Assembly (NCBI GenBank): GCA_016208535.1 | Contig: JACQXW010000010.1 | Span: forward strand, 1-42,007 | Length of the DNA: 42,007 nucleotides | Reading direction: 5' to 3' | DNA from: Candidatus Terrybacteria bacterium | GTDB lineage: Bacteria; Patescibacteriota; Minisyncoccia; UBA9983 | In this document: positions 4,741-39,264 of the stretch, one piece after another | Numbering within the stretch: the first letter of the stretch is position 1 | Layout of the letters: each line of letters opens with the position of its first letter | Program-made: the position numbers and the translations under genes | The notes under the pieces: model-generated | Seen by the model: the letters and a program-made list of their open reading frames with translations, nothing else | Told to the model about the DNA's origin: nothing | Databases searched by the model: none

Positions 4741-4749
4741 TTATCCACA
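4741..4749 (+). promoter_or_regulatory. TTATCCACA (perfect DnaA-box consensus 9-mer)
   Basis: Exact 9-mer in the intergenic region upstream of the 722-aa surface-protein gene. Confidence 0.5.
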
Positions 4750-7076: not shown

Positions 7077-7283
7077 ATGGAAGTTGTTACAATTCCTAAA
7101 AAATTAGAAAAAGAATTAAAAGATGTTTCTCATAATTTTGGCGTTTCTCAAGAGGATTTTTTAACAAATGCCGTTTTATACTATCTCAAGGCCTTGAAAG
7201 ATAAAATTGATTTAAAAAAGGAATTAGAAATGTGGGCTAATGCCAGTGAGAAAGATTTTCTTAAATTTGAAAAGAGTTTATGA
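7077..7283 (+). CDS. antitoxin of the MazEF/PemIK-type pair
   Basis: 68-aa ORF with an ATGA overlap onto the downstream PemK/MazF-like toxin. Confidence 0.6.
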   Translation: MEVVTIPKKLEKELKDVSHNFGVSQEDFLTNAVLYYLKALKDKIDLKKELEMWANASEKDFLKFEKSL

Positions 7284-7606
7284 AAAAGGGCGATGTTTGT
7301 ATCGTTAATGTGGCTACTGGCGTCGGCCATGAGCAATATGGCGAGAGGCCGGCAATTTTAATTTCAGATACAAAGATAGGTATTGTTATCGTTATACCTT
7401 TGACTTCCAATATGGAAGCCTTAAAATTTCCTTATACTCTAACTATTTTTTCTGATAAACAAAATAATCTTAGTCAAGATTCTGTGGCGCTAATTTTCCA
7501 GATTAGAGCCGTTGATAAATCAAGAATTACAAAAGTTATTGGAAAAATCAGCACAAATTTTCAAAAAAAGATTGACAAGATTCTTAAAGAGGTATTGGTT
7601 TTATAA
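7280..7606 (+). CDS. mazF: PemK/MazF-family mRNA-interferase toxin
   Basis: 108 aa. MKKGDVCIVNV...GHEQYGERPAILISD...VIVIPLTSN fits the PemK/MazF fold signature. Confidence 0.8.
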   Translation: MKKGDVCIVNVATGVGHEQYGERPAILISDTKIGIVIVIPLTSNMEALKFPYTLTIFSDKQNNLSQDSVALIFQIRAVDKSRITKVIGKISTNFQKKIDKILKEVLVL

Positions 7607-21040: not shown

Positions 21041-22027
21041 ATGATAAACAAATTCCAAACTAAATACGAAGAAATTATCTCTATCGAAAACCTCCTTTCG
21101 GCTTGGGAAGAATTTTTGAAAGGCAAAAGAAACAGAAAAGATGTTCAAGAATTTCAGTTTAATCTGATGGACAACATCCTTGCTCTCCATGGCAATCTCG
21201 CCAGCCGAACTTACAGCCACGGCGGATATAAAGCATTCAAAATCAACGACCCAAAGCCGAGAGATATCCACAAAGCAAGCGTGCGGGACAGATTGTTGCA
21301 TCACGCCATTTACAGGATTTTGTATCCGTATTTTGACAAAACATTCATAGCCGATTCTTTTTCCTGCAGATTAAAAAAGGGCACGCACAAAGCGATAAAC
21401 AGATTCAGAAAATTTGCCTACAAAACCGGCAAAAATGACACCAAAACCTGCTGGATTTTAAAATGCGATATCAAGAAGTTTTTTGCCAACATAGACCACA
21501 AAATTTTAATCAATGTCCTGCGTGAACATATTGTGGACGAAAACTTGATAAAACTTCTCAAAAACATCGTTGAAAGTTTTTCGTCAGCAAGAGATGGCAT
21601 CGGTTTACCATTAGGCAATCTCACTTCGCAACTTTTCGTAAATATTTACATGAACAAATTTGACCAATTTGTAAAACACAAATTGAAAGCGAAATATTAC
21701 ATCAGATATTGCGACGATTTTGTTGTTTTCTTGGAAAGTAAAAATTATGCGCAAAAATTGATTCCGCCCGTCAGGGAATTCCTAAACAAAGAGCTTAAAC
21801 TGGAACTGCATCCCGACAAAATTTCCGTCAAAACTCTGGCTTCCGGCGCCGACTTTCTCGGCTGGATTAATTTTACCGACCATAGAATTTTGAGAACCGC
21901 CACAAAAAGAAAAATATTCAGGAATATCAAGGAAAGGGGAGGTAAGGCGGAAACCGTCCAGTCGTATTTGGGGCTGATTAGGTGGGGGAATACAAGGAAA
22001 TTGCGTAATTTAATTGTAAAGTGTTGA
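21041..22027 (+). CDS. DGR-type reverse transcriptase
   Basis: 328 aa. ...NDPKPRDIHKASVRDRLLHHAIY...KCDIKKFFANIDH...GLPLGNLTSQLFVNIYMNKFDQFVKH...YIRYCDDFVVF...LELHPDKISV...ADFLGW. It carries the LGxxxSQ motif-4 signature and YxDD. Confidence 0.9.
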   Translation: MINKFQTKYEEIISIENLLSAWEEFLKGKRNRKDVQEFQFNLMDNILALHGNLASRTYSHGGYKAFKINDPKPRDIHKASVRDRLLHHAIYRILYPYFDKTFIADSFSCRLKKGTHKAINRFRKFAYKTGKNDTKTCWILKCDIKKFFANIDHKILINVLREHIVDENLIKLLKNIVESFSSARDGIGLPLGNLTSQLFVNIYMNKFDQFVKHKLKAKYYIRYCDDFVVFLESKNYAQKLIPPVREFLNKELKLELHPDKISVKTLASGADFLGWINFTDHRILRTATKRKIFRNIKERGGKAETVQSYLGLIRWGNTRKLRNLIVKC

Positions 22028-23887: not shown

Positions 23888-23930
23888 TTATCCACACCCA
23901 CTCCTTAAATTTCTCTCAATATGTTATAAT
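23888..23930 (+). promoter_or_regulatory. TTATCCACA (23888-23896) followed by a TATAAT -10 box (23925-23930)
   Basis: TTATCCACAcccactccttaaatttctctcaatatgtTATAAT. The -35 is weak. Confidence 0.4.
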
Positions 23931-23976: not shown

Positions 23977-24016
23977 TATTAATTTTATTTATTATCACAT
24001 AAACACTGAAGAACCT

Positions 24017-24496
24017 TTGGCAAAGGCAGGCTTCCGTCTTGACAGCGGCGCCTTTATCGGCGGTTTGGTGCGGTGGTTTTTAATCATCGTCTTTTTGATT
24101 GCCTCAATAGAGGTCATAGGTTTGAGCCAGGTCAACGCCTTTTTAAGAGATGTTGTTTTGGCTTATCTGCCGAATGTGATTGTGGCAGCTCTTATCTTGG
24201 TTGTGGCAGCCTTTGTGGCTAATGCTATACAGAAGATAATCGTTGGCTCAGCCAAGGCCGCAGGCGTTCCCTCATCTCAGCTTTTGGGAGGGATAGCCAA
24301 GTGGGCGATTTGGCTTTTCGCGATTCTGGCTGCCTTGTATCAGCTGGGGATTGCCGGAGTTTTTGCCCAAACGCTGTTTACGGGATTTGTGGCAATGCTG
24401 GCCATTGCCGGCGGTTTGGCCTTTGGTTTGGGAGCAAAGGAGGCGGCAGGAAGATATATTGAAAAATTAAGACAAGATATAAGTAATCGAGGATAA
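24017..24496 (+). CDS. multi-pass membrane protein (conserved TM-helix-repeat / MscS-N-terminal-like)
   Basis: 159 aa with a TTG start and four hydrophobic helices (e.g. GGLVRWFLIIVFLIASIEVIG). The N-terminus may be truncated relative to the family. Confidence 0.5.
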   Translation: MAKAGFRLDSGAFIGGLVRWFLIIVFLIASIEVIGLSQVNAFLRDVVLAYLPNVIVAALILVVAAFVANAIQKIIVGSAKAAGVPSSQLLGGIAKWAIWLFAILAALYQLGIAGVFAQTLFTGFVAMLAIAGGLAFGLGAKEAAGRYIEKLRQDISNRG

Positions 24497-24508
24497 AACA
24501 GAATAGAC

Positions 24509-24580
24509 TTATCCACAGCAACCGAGCACATAGATTATGTGCTCGGTTGACTTGTTTTTAGGAGATATTTATTTTATACT
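24509..24580 (+). promoter_or_regulatory. promoter module copy 1: TTATCCACA - palindrome CCGAGCACA-tagatta-TGTGCTCGG - TTGACT ... TATACT
   Basis: Positions 24509-24560 match 25609-25660 except for the 7-nt palindrome centre. A TATTTT box lies 17 nt after the TTGACT (24547-24552). Alternatively, TTGTTT-N17-TATACT sits 7 nt before the hicB ATG. Confidence 0.6.
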
Positions 24581-24587
24581 GAAATCA

Positions 24588-24842
24588 ATGAAAAAAAGAA
24601 CAGATCAATATTATATAATTTACGAACGAGACGAGAAAAAGGGATATATTGCTTCTGCGCCGGCGATTCCCGGTTGTGTTATATATGGAAAAACCTTAAA
24701 AGAGGCGCATAAAAATATTTATAGTGCCATAAAAGAATGTTTAGAAGTAATCCAAGAATTTAAAGGAAATTTACCAAAAGAAACCATAAAGCCTGAAGTT
24801 ATAAGGAAATTTTCTTTTATAAAAATTCCTGAATATGCCTAA
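24588..24842 (+). CDS. hicB: HicB-family antitoxin
   Basis: Begins at MKKRTDQYYIIYERDEKKGYIASAPAIPGCVIYGKTLKEAHKNIYSAIKECLE (UPF0150/HicB pattern). The ORF-track start at 24537 lies in the promoter palindrome. Confidence 0.75.
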   Translation: MKKRTDQYYIIYERDEKKGYIASAPAIPGCVIYGKTLKEAHKNIYSAIKECLEVIQEFKGNLPKETIKPEVIRKFSFIKIPEYA

Positions 24843-25056
24843 AATTAAGCCGATTGGATACGATGAATTTACAAGAAAATTGATGCGCGCCGGATATGTT
24901 CCAGTAAGAAAAAGCAAACACACCATATATTTTCATCCGCAGAAACAAATAACAATACCATTGCCACATAAACACCAAAAGGATATGTCCAAAGGATTTA
25001 TTCATAAACTCATAAAAGAAATGAAATTATCAACAGAAGAATTTAATCAATTATGA
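24835..25056 (+). CDS. hicA: HicA-family mRNA-interferase toxin
   Basis: 73 aa. MPKIKPIGYDEFTRKLMRAGYVPVRKSKHTIYFHP...ITIPLPHKHQKDMSKGFIHKLIKEM. It overlaps hicB by 8 nt. Confidence 0.8.
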   Translation: MPKIKPIGYDEFTRKLMRAGYVPVRKSKHTIYFHPQKQITIPLPHKHQKDMSKGFIHKLIKEMKLSTEEFNQL

Positions 25057-25574
25057 ATAACCAAAAAGGCATCGCGCCGATTGCAATAATATTGATAATC
25101 ATTGGAGCTTTGGCTCTTGGTGGCGGAGCGTGATATGTGAAGGAGCAGAAAAAGATAAAAGAAATCAAAAAACAAACGGAAGAATTAAATCAAAATCAGC
25201 AAACAAATCAGCAGCTGGGCGTACAAAGTAGTTATAATTTATTTGAAATAATTTCACCAAAAAATCAGGATGTATGGGAAAAAGGAAAGGAATATGAAAT
25301 TAATTGGAACCAAAACAAAGAAGTTGGATTAGTTGCAGTGCGGCTAGTTTCTCAGTCATCAACATCAACAAAAATTCTAATTGCTTCAAATGAAAAAGGA
25401 AAAGGTGATTTTATTAATTTTTCAAAGCCTCCAATAATTTATAAACCTTCCGTTTTAATCAAAAACGGTCTTTACAATGTTTTAATTTGCGATGTTTCTC
25501 CTTGGAATCGTGGTGTAAGTCAAGATAAAATTTGTAGTAAGAGTGGAATAGTAAATATAGTTGACAATCAGTAA
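25053..25574 (+). pseudogene. small secreted/anchored protein interrupted by an in-frame TGA
   Basis: The ATG at 25053 encodes the signal anchor MNNQKGIAPIAIILIIIGALALGGGA. A TGA at 25131-25133 follows, and the same frame then continues YVKEQKK... to 25574. The body resembles one module of the 722-aa surface protein (ISPKNQDVWEKGKEYEINW). Confidence 0.5.
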
Positions 25575-25608
25575 TCTTTAAATTCATTTAATAATTTTCT
25601 CGTTCTAG

Positions 25609-25675
25609 TTATCCACAGCAACCGAGCACATAATCTATGTGCTCGGTTGACTTGTTTTTAAGTCAAGTATATAAT
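25609..25675 (+). promoter_or_regulatory. promoter module copy 2 (23S-5S rRNA leader): TTATCCACA - palindrome CCGAGCACA-taatcta-TGTGCTCGG - TTGACT-N17-TATAAT
   Basis: Consensus TTGACT (25647-25652) and TATAAT (25670-25675). The leader contains a weak boxA-like GCTCTGTTTTAAC at about 25731. Confidence 0.7.
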
Positions 25676-25920
25676 GTAATTACGATATGAGTAGAATAAA
25701 TAAATCATTATTTTGGAAGCGGAAATTATAGCTCTGTTTTAACCTTTTGTGGTCTGAAATCCCGCTTCTCAAGAGCGGATTTTTTATTCCCCGCCCGCCT
25801 CGCTACGCGAAGCGTTGCGGGCAGGTCAAAAGCTCGAACTTTGAAAATTTAATAACAGGTAAAAACTGTATAAAAAACAAATAGATATCTAAATTTCCTA
25901 ATAGGAAACCTCGTAAAACG

Positions 25921-29358
<3,438 letters not shown>

Positions 29359-29431
29359 TCCTATTAGGAAATTTGGATATCTGCCCTGTCGCTCGCGAGC
29401 GACAGGGTCTGTAAAATAGAGCCCGGAATTT

Positions 29432-29531
29432 TGGCGGCTTGGCGCCACGGATCCACCCGTTCCCATTTCGAACACGGAAGTGAAACGTGGTAGCGGCGAT
29501 GATACTCAAAAGGGAAAGTAGCTAGCCGCCA
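29432..29531 (+). rRNA. rrf: 5S rRNA (short, about 100 nt)
   Basis: TGGCGGC...CCACCCGTTCCCATTTCGAACACGGAAGTGAAAC...GCCGCCA. The helix IV/V region appears shortened. An outer stem CCCGGAAT/ATTCCGGG plus a T-run follows. Confidence 0.8.
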
Positions 29532-29577
29532 GTATTCCGGGCTTTATTTTTTTCTAAATTATTCTATTATTAATTTA

Positions 29578-31523: not shown

Positions 31524-32690
31524 ATGAGAGATTTTGAAATAGAAAATTTTATTAAACAAGAAGAAAAGAGGCAAAAAAAGGCGATAAATCTTATTGCCTC
31601 TGAGAATTTTGCTTCCAAAGATGTTTTAAAGGCGCTCGGGTCTGTTTTTATGAATAAATACGCCGAGGGCTACGCGGGAAAAAGATATTACGGCGGAAAT
31701 GAAATTGTGGATAAACTGGAAAAATTATGCCAAGAGCGCGCGCTGAAATTATTTATCCGCCAGCCGGCGGATCGCCATAAATGGAGTGTAAATGTCCAGC
31801 CTTACTCCGGCTCGCCGGCAAATCTGGCGGTTTTTTTGGCGCTTGTGCCGAAAGGTGGAAAAATTATGGGAATGTCTTTGGAAATGGGCGGGCATTTGAC
31901 CCATGGACAAAGAGTTTCTATAACCGGAAAACTTTGGAAGCAAGTGCCGTATGGCGTGGATAAAAAAACGGAGCAGTTGGATTATGGCGAGATTTTAAAA
32001 ATAGCCAAAAAAGAAAAGCCGGTGCTGATTATCGCGGGAGCCACGGCTTATTCGCGAAAAATTGATTTTAAAAAATTCAGAGAAATTGCAGACACAGTTG
32101 GCGCGTATTTAATGGTGGATATGTCGCACATCGCGGGGCTGGTGGCGGGTGGAGTTCATTCGAGTCCATTCCCATATGCAGATGTGGTAATGACAACAAC
32201 TCATAAAACCTTGCGCGGCCCGAGAGCAGCTCTAATTTTTTGCAAACTGGAATTAGCTTCAAAAATTGATAAAGCTGTTTTTCCCGGTTTGCAGGGCGGG
32301 CCGCATATGAATCAGGTGGTGGCAATGGCAGTGGCTTTGAGAGAGGCTATGCAACCGAGTTTTAAAAAATACGCGCGACAAGTTGTGAAAAACGCCAAGG
32401 TCTTGGCGAATGAATTAAAAAAGCGCAGCTGGAGAATAATTTCCAACGGAACTGATACACACTTGTTTTTAGTTGATGTCTGGCAGAGGGGGATTGGCGG
32501 AAAGGAGGTAAGCGAAAGATTAGAGAAAGCCGGAATTATCGTTAATAAAAATACCATTCCGTTTGACACTCGCAAACCAGCTGATCCGTCCGGTATCCGT
32601 ATCGGCACGCCGGCGGTAACAACGCGAGGAATGAAAGAAAAAGATATGGTAAAAATCGCGGAAAAAATAGATAAAATATTAAAATTATGA
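31524..32690 (+). CDS. glyA: serine hydroxymethyltransferase
   Basis: 388 aa. ...LIASENF...YAEGYAGKRYYGG...TTTHKTLRGPR (PLP lysine). Confidence 0.9.
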   Translation: MRDFEIENFIKQEEKRQKKAINLIASENFASKDVLKALGSVFMNKYAEGYAGKRYYGGNEIVDKLEKLCQERALKLFIRQPADRHKWSVNVQPYSGSPANLAVFLALVPKGGKIMGMSLEMGGHLTHGQRVSITGKLWKQVPYGVDKKTEQLDYGEILKIAKKEKPVLIIAGATAYSRKIDFKKFREIADTVGAYLMVDMSHIAGLVAGGVHSSPFPYADVVMTTTHKTLRGPRAALIFCKLELASKIDKAVFPGLQGGPHMNQVVAMAVALREAMQPSFKKYARQVVKNAKVLANELKKRSWRIISNGTDTHLFLVDVWQRGIGGKEVSERLEKAGIIVNKNTIPFDTRKPADPSGIRIGTPAVTTRGMKEKDMVKIAEKIDKILKL

Positions 32691-33402
32691 TTATTGACGG
32701 CAGGAAAATTGCGGAGGAAATAAAGGAAGATTTAAGGCAGGATATTTTAAGGACCAACAAAAAGCTCAAGTTAGTTATTATTCAGGTTGGTGAGAACGAA
32801 GTTTCAAAAAAGTTTATTGAAAGAAAAATAAAGTTTGCGGAGGATATCGGAGTTAAAACTCGGCTTTATAATCTACCGGCAGACATTTCCACCTCGCAAT
32901 TGCGCAAAAAAATGGCGGAAATTTGCCATATAAAAGAGAATGACGGAGTGATAATCCAGTTGCCGTTGCCGGAGCAAATAAACGTCGTTCAAAAATTTTG
33001 CCTCCTCTTGTTGGTGTCATAAAAATAATTTTTGAAAAATATAATATTAAACCGGCTGGAAAAAATATCGTTGTCATCGGCAGGGGGATTTTGGTTGGCA
33101 AGCCGATTGCCAATTGGCTCATCAATGAAGGAGCGACGGTTTCTGTTTTAAATTCAAAAACTTCCAACCCTAGTGGTTATACCCTAATGGCTGATGTAAT
33201 AATTAGCGGCGCAGGCAAACCGGGCTTGATAAAGCTGGAGATGGTGAAAGACGGGGTTATAATAATTGACGCGGGTTCGCTGGCTGGCGATGTTGATCCG
33301 GCTGTGGCAGAGAAGGCCTCACTTTTTACGCCTGTTCCCGGCGGCGTGGGGCCGATTACTGTGGCAATGGTGTTTAAAAATTTGGTAGAATTAAATAAAT
33401 GA
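32687..33402 (+). pseudogene. folD: methylenetetrahydrofolate dehydrogenase/cyclohydrolase FolD, split by a frameshift and lacking an internal segment
   Basis: ORFs 32687-33022 (...DGVIIQLPLPEQIN...) and 32998-33402 (...FTPVPGGVGPITVAMVFKN...) are both FolD-like. The frame changes in the A5T4 run at 32991-32999. About 27 residues corresponding to the ...KDVDGF... region seem absent. Confidence 0.6.
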
Positions 33403-36591: not shown

Positions 36592-38074
36592 TAAAATATA
36601 AACTAAATATTACTCGAACCTTGAAAAATGAATATTGATTCATTACGTGCATATTATTTTTTCTTTTGTTCCGTTCGATCCCGCTTTTAGCGGGATTTAT
36701 TTGAGAGTTTGATCCTGGCTCAGGACGAACGCTGGCGGCGTGGAGAAGGCATGCAAGTCATACGGATCAATTTTTGTAGCAATATAAAAATTGGTCAGTG
36801 GCGAACGAGTCAGTAACACGTAGAAACGTACCCAAAAGTCGGGCATAATTCCGCGAAAGCGGGACTAATTCCCGATGGTTCTCGCAAGAGTAAAGGAGTA
36901 ATCCGCTTTTGGATCGGTCTGCGGGCTATCAGCTAGTTGGCGGGGTAAGAGCCCACCAAGGCGATGACGGCTAGGAGGCGTGAGAGCGTGACCTCCGACG
37001 ATGGCACTGCGACACGGGCCATACACCTACGGGTGGCAGCAGTCGAGAGTCTTCCACAATGGGCGAAAGCCTGATGGAGCGACGCCGCGTGAATGATGAA
37101 GGACTTCGGTCTGTAAAGTTCTTTTATCTATGAAAAATCTTACCCGCCTTTGGCGGGTGAAATGATATTAGTAGATGAATAAGGGGTTGCTAAACTCGTG
37201 CCAGCAGCAGCGGTAAGACGAGTACCCCAAGCGTTGTCCGGAATTACTGGGCGTAAAGGGTGTGTAGGGGGTTGAGTTAGTCTTGTTTTAAATATTCCGG
37301 CTTAACCGGAAAAATGAACAGGAAACGGCTTAACTTGGAGGATGTGAGAGGTATGCGGAACTCATGGTGTAGGGGTGAAATCCGTTGATATCATGGGGAA
37401 CACCAAAGGCGAAGGCAGCATACTGGCGCATTCCTGACCCTGAAACACGAAAGCGTGGGCATAAAAAAGGATTAGATACCCTTGTATTCCACGCCCTAAA
37501 CGATGTTCTCTAGCTTTCCGAAGTATCGACCCTTTGGGAGGCGAAGCTAACGCGTTAAGAGAACCGCCTGGGAAGTACGAGCGCAAGCTTAAAACTCAAA
37601 GGAATAGACGGGGACTTGCACAAGCGGTGGATCATGTGGTTTAATTCGACGATAAACGAAGAACCTTACCAGGGCTTGAAACCTAATCGAATATCAGAGG
37701 AAACTTTGATAGTTCTCACAAGGAACGGTTGGGCAGGTGATGCATGGCTGTTGTCAGTTCGTGGTTTGAATTGTTCCCTTAAGTGGGGCAACGAACGCAA
37801 CCCTTGTTGCCTGTTACAAGTGTCAGGCAAGACTGCCCCGTTATACGGGGAGGAAGGAGAGGACGACACCAAGTCAGCATGTCCCTTTGACGTCCTGGGC
37901 TACACACATGATACAATGGGGCCGACAATGGGTCGCAAAGCCGAAAGGCGGAGCAAACCCCACCAAACGGTCTCTCAGTTCGGATTGAGGTCTGCAACTC
38001 GACCTCATGAAGTTGGAATCGCTAGTAATCGCGGGTCAGCTATACCGCGGTGAATACGTTCTCAAGTCTTGTAC

Positions 38075-38916
38075 TCGGGTCGCTGTGCGATCCTATAAAT
38101 TAGTCCGTTAAAATCGGGCCAGAAAGAGCGCAATTTTCTGAAGCAAAATTGCAGGTCTATCCCCGCGAGGGGACGACCGAAGGGCGAAATTAGCGTTTCG
38201 TAGCTTGAATAACAGTTGTGGCGTGGTATATTGGTTATCCTTCGAGTACCAGGAGAAGCCATTGCGTTAAAAAAAGTATACTACGTGTAGTGTTATCGAG
38301 ATGCGAAAGAAATGTTTATAGGGTTACCACAGGAGATCTTGCATAATTCCTCGATGTTTGCTAACATCGAGAGTATAAGGGCGAGTAATTGTCCTTAAAA
38401 TGTTATGCAAGAAGTCAGCAGAGTTCATAGTACCAAAAAGGCAGATAGACGATTAAATTCTAAATTAAAACTACCTTTTGGGAAGGAACGAATCCAAAGA
38501 AAAAAGTTAAATCCACATTATGTTAGCGGTTTTATTGACGGAGAAGGATCTTTTTCGGTCAGTATCGGGCGTCATAAAACTTTGCGTCGGGGGTTTGAAG
38601 TCAGATGATCGATACGGATGGTATCCTCACGCAAAATACAAAATCACTAGCATATGGGATATGAACAAATACCTTTTTCCTTTTCTTGACAGATATCCTC
38701 TGCAAGCCAAAAAAGCAAAAGTATATAAGCTTTTTAGAGAAATTGTTATAATGGTTTGTAATAAAGAACATTTGAGCGATGGAGGATTCAAGAAAATTGT
38801 AAAACTCCGCGATAAAATTCGGAGTATGGGGAAAAAGGCAAAAACTTTTGGAAACCGCTAGGGTGCGGGAAAACCGCTTGCCCAGTGGTGTGAGATTCGT
38901 CTGAGGCGAAATCTCA
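38075..38916 (+). mobile_element. intron-like insertion in 16S rRNA carrying a degenerate LAGLIDADG homing-endonuclease gene
   Basis: The exon joint restores TCTTGTAC|ATACCGCCCGTCAC (E. coli CTTGTACACACCGCCCGTCAC, about position 1395). Boundaries are good to +/-2 nt. The intron class is not determinable by eye. Confidence 0.7.
38405..38861 (+). pseudogene. LAGLIDADG homing endonuclease, frameshifted/internally deleted
   Basis: ORF 38405-38608 contains YVSGFIDGEGSFSVSIG and ends ...GFEVR*. A second frame (to 38861) continues ...DDRYGWYPHAKYKITS...FLDRYPLQAKKAKVYKLFREIV... Confidence 0.65.
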
Positions 38917-39264
38917 ATACCGCCCGTCACGTCAAGGAAGCCGAGAATACCCGATGCCGCGTCTTGACGCGGTTACGGTAAGTTCGGTAACAGGGACGAA
39001 GTCGTAACAAGGCACGGCTAGGGGAACCTGGTCGTGGATTAATTAATCTAATTCTCTTCTGCCATCCGCCAATTGGCGGAGCAAGAAGGGGACTAGGTCG
39101 ATTCAGTTTAGGCTGAGTATAAAGGCATTGGTCTTGGAGCCTTGCCCGCCTCTGGTGGGTTAAAGTTGAGACCATAAGAGAACGGAACAAAATAAAGAAT
39201 AGTATGCAAAATAGCCGCTGGATTTTCTGCGGCTTTTTTGTTATATTTATAAAATAAAATTTGC

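Follow-up and report, generated by a model that had tools for sequence, protein, structure and literature searches.

A 52-nt promoter module duplicated around hicBA in a Candidatus Terrybacteria contig contains a hairpin of a dispersed family and may also act as a terminator

Short hairpin-forming palindromes recur between bacterial genes in several described systems. Repetitive extragenic palindromic (REP) elements and bacterial interspersed mosaic elements (BIMEs) are transcribed as hairpins that can end or stabilize the upstream mRNA, carry a GTAG flank, and are normally species-specific and present in many copies. HicB antitoxins commonly autoregulate via palindromic operators, and DnaA boxes precede E. 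coli nrdAB. Here, we analyzed a 42,007-nt stretch of DNA from a Candidatus Terrybacteria bacterium (contig JACQXW010000010.1; hereafter the window; GC content, 41%), in which a 52-nt module with a perfect palindrome at its center lies in front of both the toxin-antitoxin genes hicBA and the 23S-5S rRNA genes. We consider it probable, if well short of certain, that the module is an overlapping terminator and promoter that was duplicated around hicBA and that its palindrome belongs to a dispersed hairpin family, which we call H. The Candidate Phyla Radiation (CPR), or Patescibacteria, makes up a large share of bacterial diversity and includes few cultured or genetically manipulated members, and our literature searches on CPR promoters, terminators, or repeats returned no relevant match.

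An exact search of the window for the 52-mer, TTATCCACAGCAACCGAGCACA-N7-TGTGCTCGGTTGACTTGTTTTTA, found exactly two copies, at 24509 to 24560 and 25609 to 25660, with no mismatches outside N7, and 100 shuffles yielded no match. The copies differ at three positions within the center, TAGATTA in copy 1 and TAATCTA in copy 2 (GAT versus ATC), and the 31-nt core at 24519 to 24549 is the exact reverse complement of that at 25619 to 25649. Exact and inverted-repeat searches thus bear out an earlier sequence-only reading of this DNA, which described a doubled module whose copies differ only in reverse-complementary centers. The palindrome is longer than the 9 + 7 + 9 arrangement given there: it reads CAACCGAGCACAT-N5-ATGTGCTCGGTTG (13 + 5 + 13), a perfect 31-nt hairpin that the terminator scan scores as 14 pairs with a 3-nt loop. 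Both hairpins, on the forward strand at 24519 to 24549 (center GAT) and 25619 to 25649 (center ATC), were found by inverted-repeat search, terminator scan, and folding; the 79-nt region holding copy 1 folds with a minimum free energy of -29.3 kcal/mol (z = -7.1), and the two hairpin regions range from -26 to -29 kcal/mol with z near -6 to -7. The repeat search also revealed a third hairpin overlooked in the earlier reading, ACCGAGCACATAACTTATGTGCTCGG with center ACT, on the forward strand at 26043 to 26068. In the Rfam alignment to the bacterial large-subunit rRNA (LSU) model, this hairpin takes the place of 23S helix H10, and helix H9 is deleted. A hairpin arm standing alone was not found elsewhere in the window by exact search.

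The 31-mers of copies 1 and 2 are reverse complements of each other, and for this reason Logan contigs built at k = 31 break exactly at the hairpin: L001 ends at 24548, and L006 corresponds to 24520 to 25648. The duplication or the flipped loop could conceivably be an artifact of a de Bruijn walk through this palindromic k-mer, as contigs start and end exactly at the hairpin and the window nearby is missing 199 nt that are present in L001 and L002. Against such an origin, loop 1 occurs together with its left flank in L001 and L002, L006 spans both inner flanks and comes from five samples, and an independent Joint Genome Institute contig (L075) likewise carries two modules and a co-oriented hicBA pair. 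Since both loop orientations, each on unique flanks, were recovered in independent Logan contigs from several samples, we regard an assembly artifact as extremely improbable. The locus nevertheless carries a practical warning in that a palindromic 31-mer breaks k = 31 assemblies exactly here.

Copy 2 contains TTGACT-17-TATAAT at 25647 to 25675 on the forward strand, as the sequence-only reading had it, with 11 of 12 matches to the consensus of a sigma-70-type promoter. Three related contigs syntenic with the window (L039, L075, and L046/L055) have TTGAC(T/A)-17/18-TATAAT at the same place before the 23S gene and share the whole layout, TTATCCACA...TTGAC(T/A)-17/18-TATAAT, which supports the view that the repeat is a promoter module and that copy 2 is the predicted 23S-5S promoter. 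Copy 1 leads into hicB-hicA, an assignment with which Pfam agrees for both genes, and its predicted hicB promoter region (24547 to 24580, forward strand) comprises TTGACT at 24547 to 24552, TTGTTT at 24552 to 24557, and the previously noted TATTTT and TATACT at 24570 to 24575 and 24575 to 24580, respectively. Two sigma-70-type pairings can be drawn here, TTGACT-17-TATTTT (9 of 12 matches) and TTGTTT-17-TATACT. TATACT lies 7 nt before the hicB ATG and 22 nt past TTGACT, and the TATAAT preceding the hicB' gene of L075 (4209 to 4214) has the identical geometry relative to its ATG and TTGACT; neither start has a Shine-Dalgarno sequence. The -10 used by hicB is probably TATACT, which would make the hicB mRNA leaderless; because TATACT is 22 nt from TTGACT, the -35 in use for hicB is probably TTGTTT. 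TATTTT, which is 17 nt from TTGACT, is an alternative hicB -10.

Each module begins with TTATCCACA, at 24509 to 24517 in copy 1 and at 25609 to 25617 in copy 2 (both forward strand), the latter being kept before the 23S gene in L039, L046/L055, and L075. A motif scan found another box on the forward strand at 23888 to 23896, 5' of a mechanosensitive-channel gene (MS-channel gene) and 28 nt before a TATAAT, an arrangement shared with L039 and L075. TTATCCACA equals the DnaA-box consensus, being a 9-mer match to TTATNCACA. Exact boxes occur seven times in the 42 kb (4741, 10071, 16793, 23888, 24509, 25609, and 31706 on the reverse strand), and with up to one mismatch there are 25 against 9.6 expected. 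Five of the exact boxes are intergenic and oriented with the gene strand, 5' of a large surface protein gene, nrdD (16793), the MS-channel gene, hicB, and the 23S gene. A survey of the window and approximately 860 kb of mostly CPR-type loci gave 34 nonredundant boxes, 20 of which have a -10-like hexamer 15 to 60 nt downstream compared with 16% of random positions. The distance from box end to -10 is mostly 21 to 37 nt, or 51 to 57 nt with an inserted hairpin, and where a -35 is recognizable, the box ends 1 to 12 nt 5' of it. As judged from these positions, TTATCCACA is a recurrent, oriented upstream promoter element in this CPR group. A fixed unit of TTATCCACA plus hairpin was rejected, as a box followed by 7 to 12 nt and a -35 is the better reading of the sites at 4741 and 16793.

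This arrangement resembles the DnaA-box promoters of E. coli dnaA and nrdAB in placing a perfect TTATCCACA just 5' of the -35, and one box of the window precedes nrdD. Unlike those promoters, TTATCCACA also precedes rRNA, tRNA (in L016), toxin-antitoxin, channel, and surface protein genes, always in gene orientation and in the manner of a general promoter element; DnaA binding to it is predicted. Such binding is a reasonable guess, and we hold only tentatively that TTATCCACA might turn DnaA into a general promoter factor in these minimal genomes, one serving rRNA as well. A dnaA gene was not found among the main open reading frames (ORFs) of the window, and searches for literature linking CPR with the TTATCCACA motif, or CPR rRNA promoters with DnaA boxes, returned nothing relevant. 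A separate motif, AAAGGTCG, recurs shortly 3' of the -10 in several TTATCCACA promoters (window, ~23930; L039, ~1185; L060; and L075, ~3360) and also in the 5' leaders of genes for CxxC-x17-CxxC zinc-finger proteins (L140 to L147); it may be a conserved leader element.

The related contigs differ in what lies between the MS-channel gene and the 23S gene. In L039, the MS-channel gene is followed by a single module, TTATCCACAG-aaa-(ccccgtcc..ggacgggg)-TTGACT-17-TATAAT, and then by the leader and 23S gene, with no hicBA; a textbook GC stem with T8 after it makes up the hairpin, and the -35 falls inside the T-tract. L075 has a module with the same palindrome as the window 3' of its MS-channel gene (53 nt, 98% identical to the window), followed by hicB'/hicA'. 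HicA' is a clear Pfam HicA, but neither protein of this pair showed BLASTP similarity to window HicB or HicA. Beyond hicB'/hicA' in L075, only the first ~34 nt of the ORF that starts at 25053 in the window remain, fused to a second module that is hairpinless, TTATCCACAG joined directly to GGTTGACTTGTTTTTGG, an exact 26-nt indel relative to copy 1, followed by TATAAT and the 23S gene. L046/L055 read TTATCCACA-11 nt-TTGACA-18-TATAAT before the 23S gene and have no palindrome. The conservation of the flanks in these contigs identifies the flanks of the 52-mer as conserved rRNA promoter parts and the palindrome as an optional insert. Moreover, the presence of different hicBA pairs in the window and L075 and of none in L039 indicates that the module brackets a cassette slot. 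The sequence-only reading had proposed that a toxin-antitoxin pair captured an rRNA promoter module, and this is a fair description, as hicBA stands between two copies whereas the hicBA-less syntenic L039 has one.

In our model, the module would be the ancestral 23S promoter region, doubled when a cassette of hicBA and one further ORF came to lie between the copies. A single crossover within the module could have integrated a circular piece carrying one copy, which would fit the 1,100-bp unit formed by the insert plus one module. Copy 2 would drive 23S-5S, and copy 1 would terminate transcription of the MS-channel gene and drive a probably leaderless hicB mRNA from TATACT. We regard the doubling of the promoter around the toxin-antitoxin cassette as a new example of ordinary processes at work. 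The pair itself resembles type II hicBA loci in its HicA and HicB Pfam domains, overlapping genes, and antitoxin-first order: hicB, encoding 84 amino acids, is at 24588 to 24842 (Pfam PF15919, HicB_lk_antitox; residues 8 to 66 against profile positions 1 to 59 of 123), and hicA (Pfam PF07927) is at 24835 to 25056, both on the forward strand with an 8-nt overlap (24835 to 24842). It differs from them in having an antitoxin without a DNA-binding domain, a copied rRNA promoter region, a probably leaderless mRNA, and a slot that holds unrelated pairs.

The palindrome of the window is one copy of the H family, ACCGAGCACATA-N3-TATGTGCTCGG(T). A scan for the exact pattern ACCGAGCACAT-N5-ATGTGCTCGG over GTDB species representatives, metagenome contigs, and IMG/VR found 28 loci in the GTDB species representatives, of which 23 are CPR-type, from 14 metagenome-assembled genomes (MAGs) with up to 4 loci per MAG. 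The labels of these MAGs are Nealson-, Wildermuth-, Niyogi-, Saccharibacteria, or Patescibacteria, and the family is mostly in Parcubacteria-group MAGs. The metagenome contigs contributed 105 stretches with H. No match was found in IMG/VR viral contigs, and we rejected a phage origin on this ground. After removal of duplicates, 111 contexts remained, 103 of them CPR-type. The eight others (Bacillus, Chitinimonas, and high-GC contigs) have unrelated loops and represent chance background; with so few such matches and a CPR count far above them, chance was dismissed as a source of the family. H is not a DNA uptake sequence either, as its arm never occurs alone in the window and its copy number is far too low, with roughly one exact copy per 80 to 270 kb on long contigs. 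The sequence-only reading had considered that the module might prove to be a common dispersed repeat; this is so for the palindrome and not for the flanking promoter parts.

H occupies stable RNAs as well as intergenic sites. Contexts in rRNA were assigned by BLAST against the rRNAs of the window. Eleven lie in 16S rRNA: nine at helix h9, where H stands in for a short native hairpin still kept by the 16S rRNA of the window, and two at a second site lying ~150 nt before window 16S position 1072. Five contexts lie in 23S rRNA, three at H10 and two elsewhere; H is found at H10 in four relative lineages (five contigs), not all of which also have it in the promoter. RNase P RNA accounts for two contexts (L029 and L085). 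An unannotated, conserved structured leader RNA of ~230 nt, here called RNA X, carries H as one of its hairpins at five or more sites (L008, ~60 to 300; L020, ~290 to 535; L007, 7642 to 7960, reverse strand; L065, 5186 to 5504; and L074, 595 to 913, reverse strand), and its 3' end coincides with the start codon of unrelated genes (recJ-like, S21-like, and nusG). RNA X matched neither transfer-messenger RNA nor a known Rfam family. The remaining contexts are other intergenic sites, including gene ends and spacers of ribosomal protein operons. In L038 and L051, H and H-like hairpins (GAGCAC...GTGCTC, in several subfamilies) form arrays of two to five in the S10/spc operon spacers L23-L2, L16-S17, S8-L6, and secY-adk (L038, 5609 to 5780, 2683 to 2790, and 94 to 150; L051, 1894 to 2015, 4852 to 4952, 7489 to 7541, and 11085 to 11180).

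In its rRNA sites, H is comparable to rRNA intervening sequences (IVSs; 23S H9, H25, and H45 and the 16S h9/h10 region) and to Rickettsia palindromic elements, which likewise place hairpins at exposed variable helices and the same element in unrelated genes. H is shorter, at ~27 nt versus ~100 to 200 nt, and the native hairpin that it displaces at 23S H10 is similar in size. Unlike the case for IVSs, we saw no evidence of excision or rRNA fragmentation for H.

These findings bear on the proposal of the sequence-only reading that the palindrome is an operator that hicBA and the rRNA genes share and that a dimeric regulator binds; examples of such a regulator would be HicB or one acting on rRNA. 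A perfect inverted repeat upstream of and overlapping the -35 in both copies is what such an operator might look like. However, window HicB matches only the N-terminal fold of HicB_lk (half of the profile), Pfam finds no DNA-binding domain in it, and at 84 amino acids it is, from its length, too short for a separate one. The palindrome is not conserved with the promoter, since the rRNA promoters of L075 (copy 2), L046, and L055 lack it and that of L039 carries an unrelated GC hairpin at its position, and the same palindrome precedes an unrelated hicBA pair in L075. The palindrome sequence also turns up within 16S, 23S, and RNase P genes and behind many unrelated ones, at 103 CPR-type sites in all, and its half-sites of 12 to 13 bp are longer than those of usual operators. 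With a HicB that has no DNA-binding domain and a palindrome that is both dispensable and ubiquitous, a shared operator is unlikely, and we give this explanation little credence.

The inverted centers, asymmetric between symmetric arms, could also suggest lox- or dif-like sites, at which the 1.07-kb hicBA segment would be flipped by a recombinase or by the action of RecA on the 31-bp inverted repeat, or else scars of cassette integration; a flipped segment would give the junction TTATCCACAG-H-CTGTGGATAA. The 31-nt inverted repeat is 100% identical with 1,069 nt between its arms, unrelated hicBA cassettes in the same slot of the window and L075 suggest cassette exchange, and the k = 31 Logan graph branches at the hairpin, where direct and inverted arrangements are indistinguishable. 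Nevertheless, no integrase or invertase was found among the main ORFs of the 42-kb window, and the flanks outside the palindrome are direct repeats, fitting duplication. L075 shares the architecture although only one of its two sides bears a hairpin, and elsewhere H is mostly single-copy. Inversion would part hicB from its promoter and leave the rRNA -35 and -10 unchanged. We consider recombination at these hairpins quite unlikely.

Both hairpins of the window are terminator-like, with 14 pairs (7 GC), 13 nt and 35 nt past stop codons, and an interrupted T-run. Lying after stop codons and before a T-rich run, the palindrome is most likely an intrinsic terminator overlapping the -35. Among the rRNA promoters and modules compared, a hairpin accompanies those closely preceded by the end of a full protein gene (the two copies in the window, copy 1 of L075, and L039), and those preceded by a tRNA-like 3' end or by a gene remnant have none. 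Across the family, 59 of the 103 CPR-type sites have a T-run on at least one strand, and where the T-run is one-sided, it lies on the strand of the ORF ending there in 19 cases and on the other in 5. The commonest neighbor of H (22 sites) is a gene for a 60-amino-acid CxxC-x17-CxxC zinc-finger protein. Four homologues of this gene picked irrespective of H all have ordinary GC terminators at the same position, indicating that H occupies terminator positions and is exchangeable with ordinary terminator hairpins. In our model, the 31-nt hairpin and its T-rich tract would halt transcription from the gene ending just upstream, TTATCCACA would act as the upstream promoter element, normally 1 to 12 nt 5' of the -35 in this CPR group, and TTGACT, overlapping the hairpin foot and the T-tract, would be the -35.

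Described intrinsic terminators with an overlapping promoter share with this module a stem-loop right after the stop codon and a T-rich tract, and L039 shows this overlap, with its -35 inside T8. Terminator stems are normally not conserved in sequence across unrelated genes and genomes, whereas that of H is, and the T-tract of the window copies is interrupted (ACTTGTTTTT).

The sequence-only reading had suggested that the palindrome inverted as a unit, and the family fits this idea. The loop center is AAT or ATT (AAATT/AATTT) at 69 of the 103 sites, with both orientations common, and L012 and L016 show flipped loops on identical flanks in one genome. As loops flip throughout the family, the flipped center of the window copies is a general family property, of the kind to be expected from a perfect palindrome. 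Hairpin-loop inversions of the same form are known from chloroplast noncoding DNA and from quasi-palindrome template-switch mutations in bacteria, where the loop is reverse-complemented with stem and flanks unchanged in a manner that mimics clustered substitutions; here, the two copies are paralogous and 1.1 kb apart, and the inversion recurs family-wide. The flipped center probably arose by palindrome-mediated loop inversion, through either an intrastrand template switch or gene conversion between copies paired in inverted register. The nearest possible donor of the promoter copies of H would be 23S H10, ~400 nt downstream.

How H came to be at so many sites admits two readings, REP-like spread and a tag for a conserved factor. 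We favor the former, in which H would be a sequence-conserved, REP-like hairpin filling hairpin-tolerant sites, namely terminators, operon spacers, and variable helix tips of stable RNAs. Gain and loss at paralogous and orthologous sites, arrays, within-genome subfamilies, and both orientations argue for such spread. Like REP elements and BIMEs, H is a short dispersed palindrome in 3' untranslated regions and intercistronic spaces, with tandem arrays, both orientations, and patchy presence. Unlike them, it has no conserved flanks and no GTAG-type tetranucleotide, no RAYT-type transposase was seen among its annotated neighbors, and it is low-copy, has the same stem across CPR candidate-phylum labels, and also lies inside rRNA and RNase P genes.

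Alternatively, H might be a recognition tag of a conserved trans-acting factor, either an RNA-binding protein or a DNA-binding dimer, with the module copies and 23S H10 as cotargets. A tag would be compatible with terminator activity; where it departs from REP-like spread is in the reason for sequence conservation. All 103 distinct sites, from many lineages, share one stem, while the neighboring rRNA helices h8 and h10 have diverged with compensatory changes, although the exact-stem search exaggerates this conservation. H recurs at the same positions (nine sites at 16S h9, 23S H10 in several lineages, and at least five RNA X sites), favors RNAs of the translation apparatus, and has a low copy number per genome, unlike a selfish repeat. 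Yet ordinary hairpins serve at equivalent sites (all four terminators of the zinc-finger homologues, the window's 16S h9, and the L039 promoter). A perfect Watson-Crick stem with a free loop, of variable length in H-like variants, offers an RNA-binding protein little to read, and the variable length of the center speaks against a DNA-binding dimer. The only candidate protein, the 60-amino-acid zinc finger, lost support as an H-binding factor when its H-independent homologues proved to have GC terminators (4 of 4), and the literature shows zinc binding only. A tag read by a CPR-conserved factor, whether a binding protein or a hairpin-copying enzyme, is conceivable but doubtful.

Several observations weigh against the combination of terminator, promoter, and REP-like hairpin that we prefer. 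No clean U-run directly abuts the stem, as the tract 3' of the hairpin reads ACTTGTTTTT, and both terminator and promoter activities are read from sequence alone. If TTATCCACA must adjoin the -35, a 26-nt hairpin between them should disturb it, and one function of the hairpin-bearing copies may be impaired. No transposase or recombinase was found in the window, none was noted among genes flanking H sites, and no transposase family was noted in the larger clusters of H-neighbor ORFs, of which the largest cluster was annotated; "REP-like" thus describes behavior and not mechanism. Few copies per genome with an identical stem across 14 MAGs fit selection by a trans-acting factor better, with the caveat that the apparent invariance stems partly from the search for exact stems.

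Searches for literature on the H sequence, or on CPR with palindromes or REP elements, found nothing relevant; as far as the searched literature shows, neither the H family nor the DnaA-box-like promoter element seems to have been described. The comparison gives a view of the CPR rRNA promoter, with a DnaA-box-like element, a -35, a -10, and a conserved attenuator-like leader hairpin, and an example of duplicated promoter modules framing a toxin-antitoxin slot, whose hicBA pairs are unrelated between two relatives. Should some factor read or spread H, this would constitute a new lineage-wide RNA or DNA recognition system. As a tag, H would mark or invade 16S, 23S, and RNase P RNA, RNA X, ribosomal protein spacers, and mRNA 3' ends and would link the rRNA promoter region, the hicBA promoter, and 23S H10 within 1.6 kb. 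Otherwise, H would illustrate cleanly how a palindromic element can settle at any place that tolerates a hairpin.

Downstream of copy 2, the rRNA leader at 25716 to 25784 (forward strand) contains GGAAGCGG and a conserved terminator-like hairpin (25762 to 25778) followed by a T-run, as identified by terminator scan and by alignment of five lineages. The hairpin and U-run lie ~90 nt past the promoter in the window and at corresponding places in L039 (2023 to 2132), L075 (4773 to 4876), L046 (538 to 632), and L014 (1128 to 1238). GGAAGCGG, which stands 5' of the hairpin, is complementary to its left arm (CCGCTTCC), and the two could be an antiterminator/attenuator switch in the rRNA leader. We make no claim for boxA here, as a boxA-like string at 25730 to 25744 is not conserved in the relatives.

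The gene upstream of copy 1, at 24017 to 24496 on the forward strand, encodes an MS-channel-like membrane protein (ORF and Pfam MS_channel_1st_1), is syntenic in L039 and L075, and has its stop codon 13 nt 5' of the module. Inside the MS-channel gene of L001 (2291 to 2489) and L002 (2090 to 2288) are 199 nt that the window lacks at 24005|24006, and the protein has 159 amino acids in the window versus 220 to 228 in L001/L002; the gap is either an assembly collapse or a real deletion variant. A first look-up with the window protein gave no match, probably because the window copy is truncated relative to that of L001/L002. Between hicA and copy 2, the forward-strand ORF at 25053 to 25574, which ends 35 nt 5' of the module, encodes a small membrane-anchored protein with an Ig-like (Kre9/KNH-like) domain according to Pfam. 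An in-frame TGA (25131 to 25133) interrupts it between the N-terminal membrane segment and the Ig domain, and it could be a pseudogene or reflect a sequencing error or recoding.

The 23S-5S genes (25921 to 29534) are unlinked to the 16S gene (36697 to 38101), and intron remnants lie near the rRNA genes. Together with the GC content, these features mark the genome as one of the CPR/Patescibacteria type. The 23S gene itself spans 25921 to 29363 on the forward strand, with processing-stem arms at 25883 to 25906 and 29359 to 29382. The processing-stem arms of the 16S gene (36648 to 36676 and 39180 to 39208) enclose ~1 kb past the Rfam 16S match, and this extra segment (38374 to 38488 and 38520 to 38861) contains a match to group II intron domains D1 to D4 and a LAGLIDADG endonuclease fragment. 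A reverse transcriptase gene (RVT_1, 328 amino acids) lies at 21041 to 22027, directly 5' of rplJ-rplL. The folD gene appears as two overlapping ORFs (32687 to 33022 and 32998 to 33402) that separate the catalytic from the NAD(P)-binding domain, through either a frameshift or a genuine split of the gene. A MazF/PemK-like toxin gene at 7280 to 7606 is the second toxin gene of the 42-kb window.

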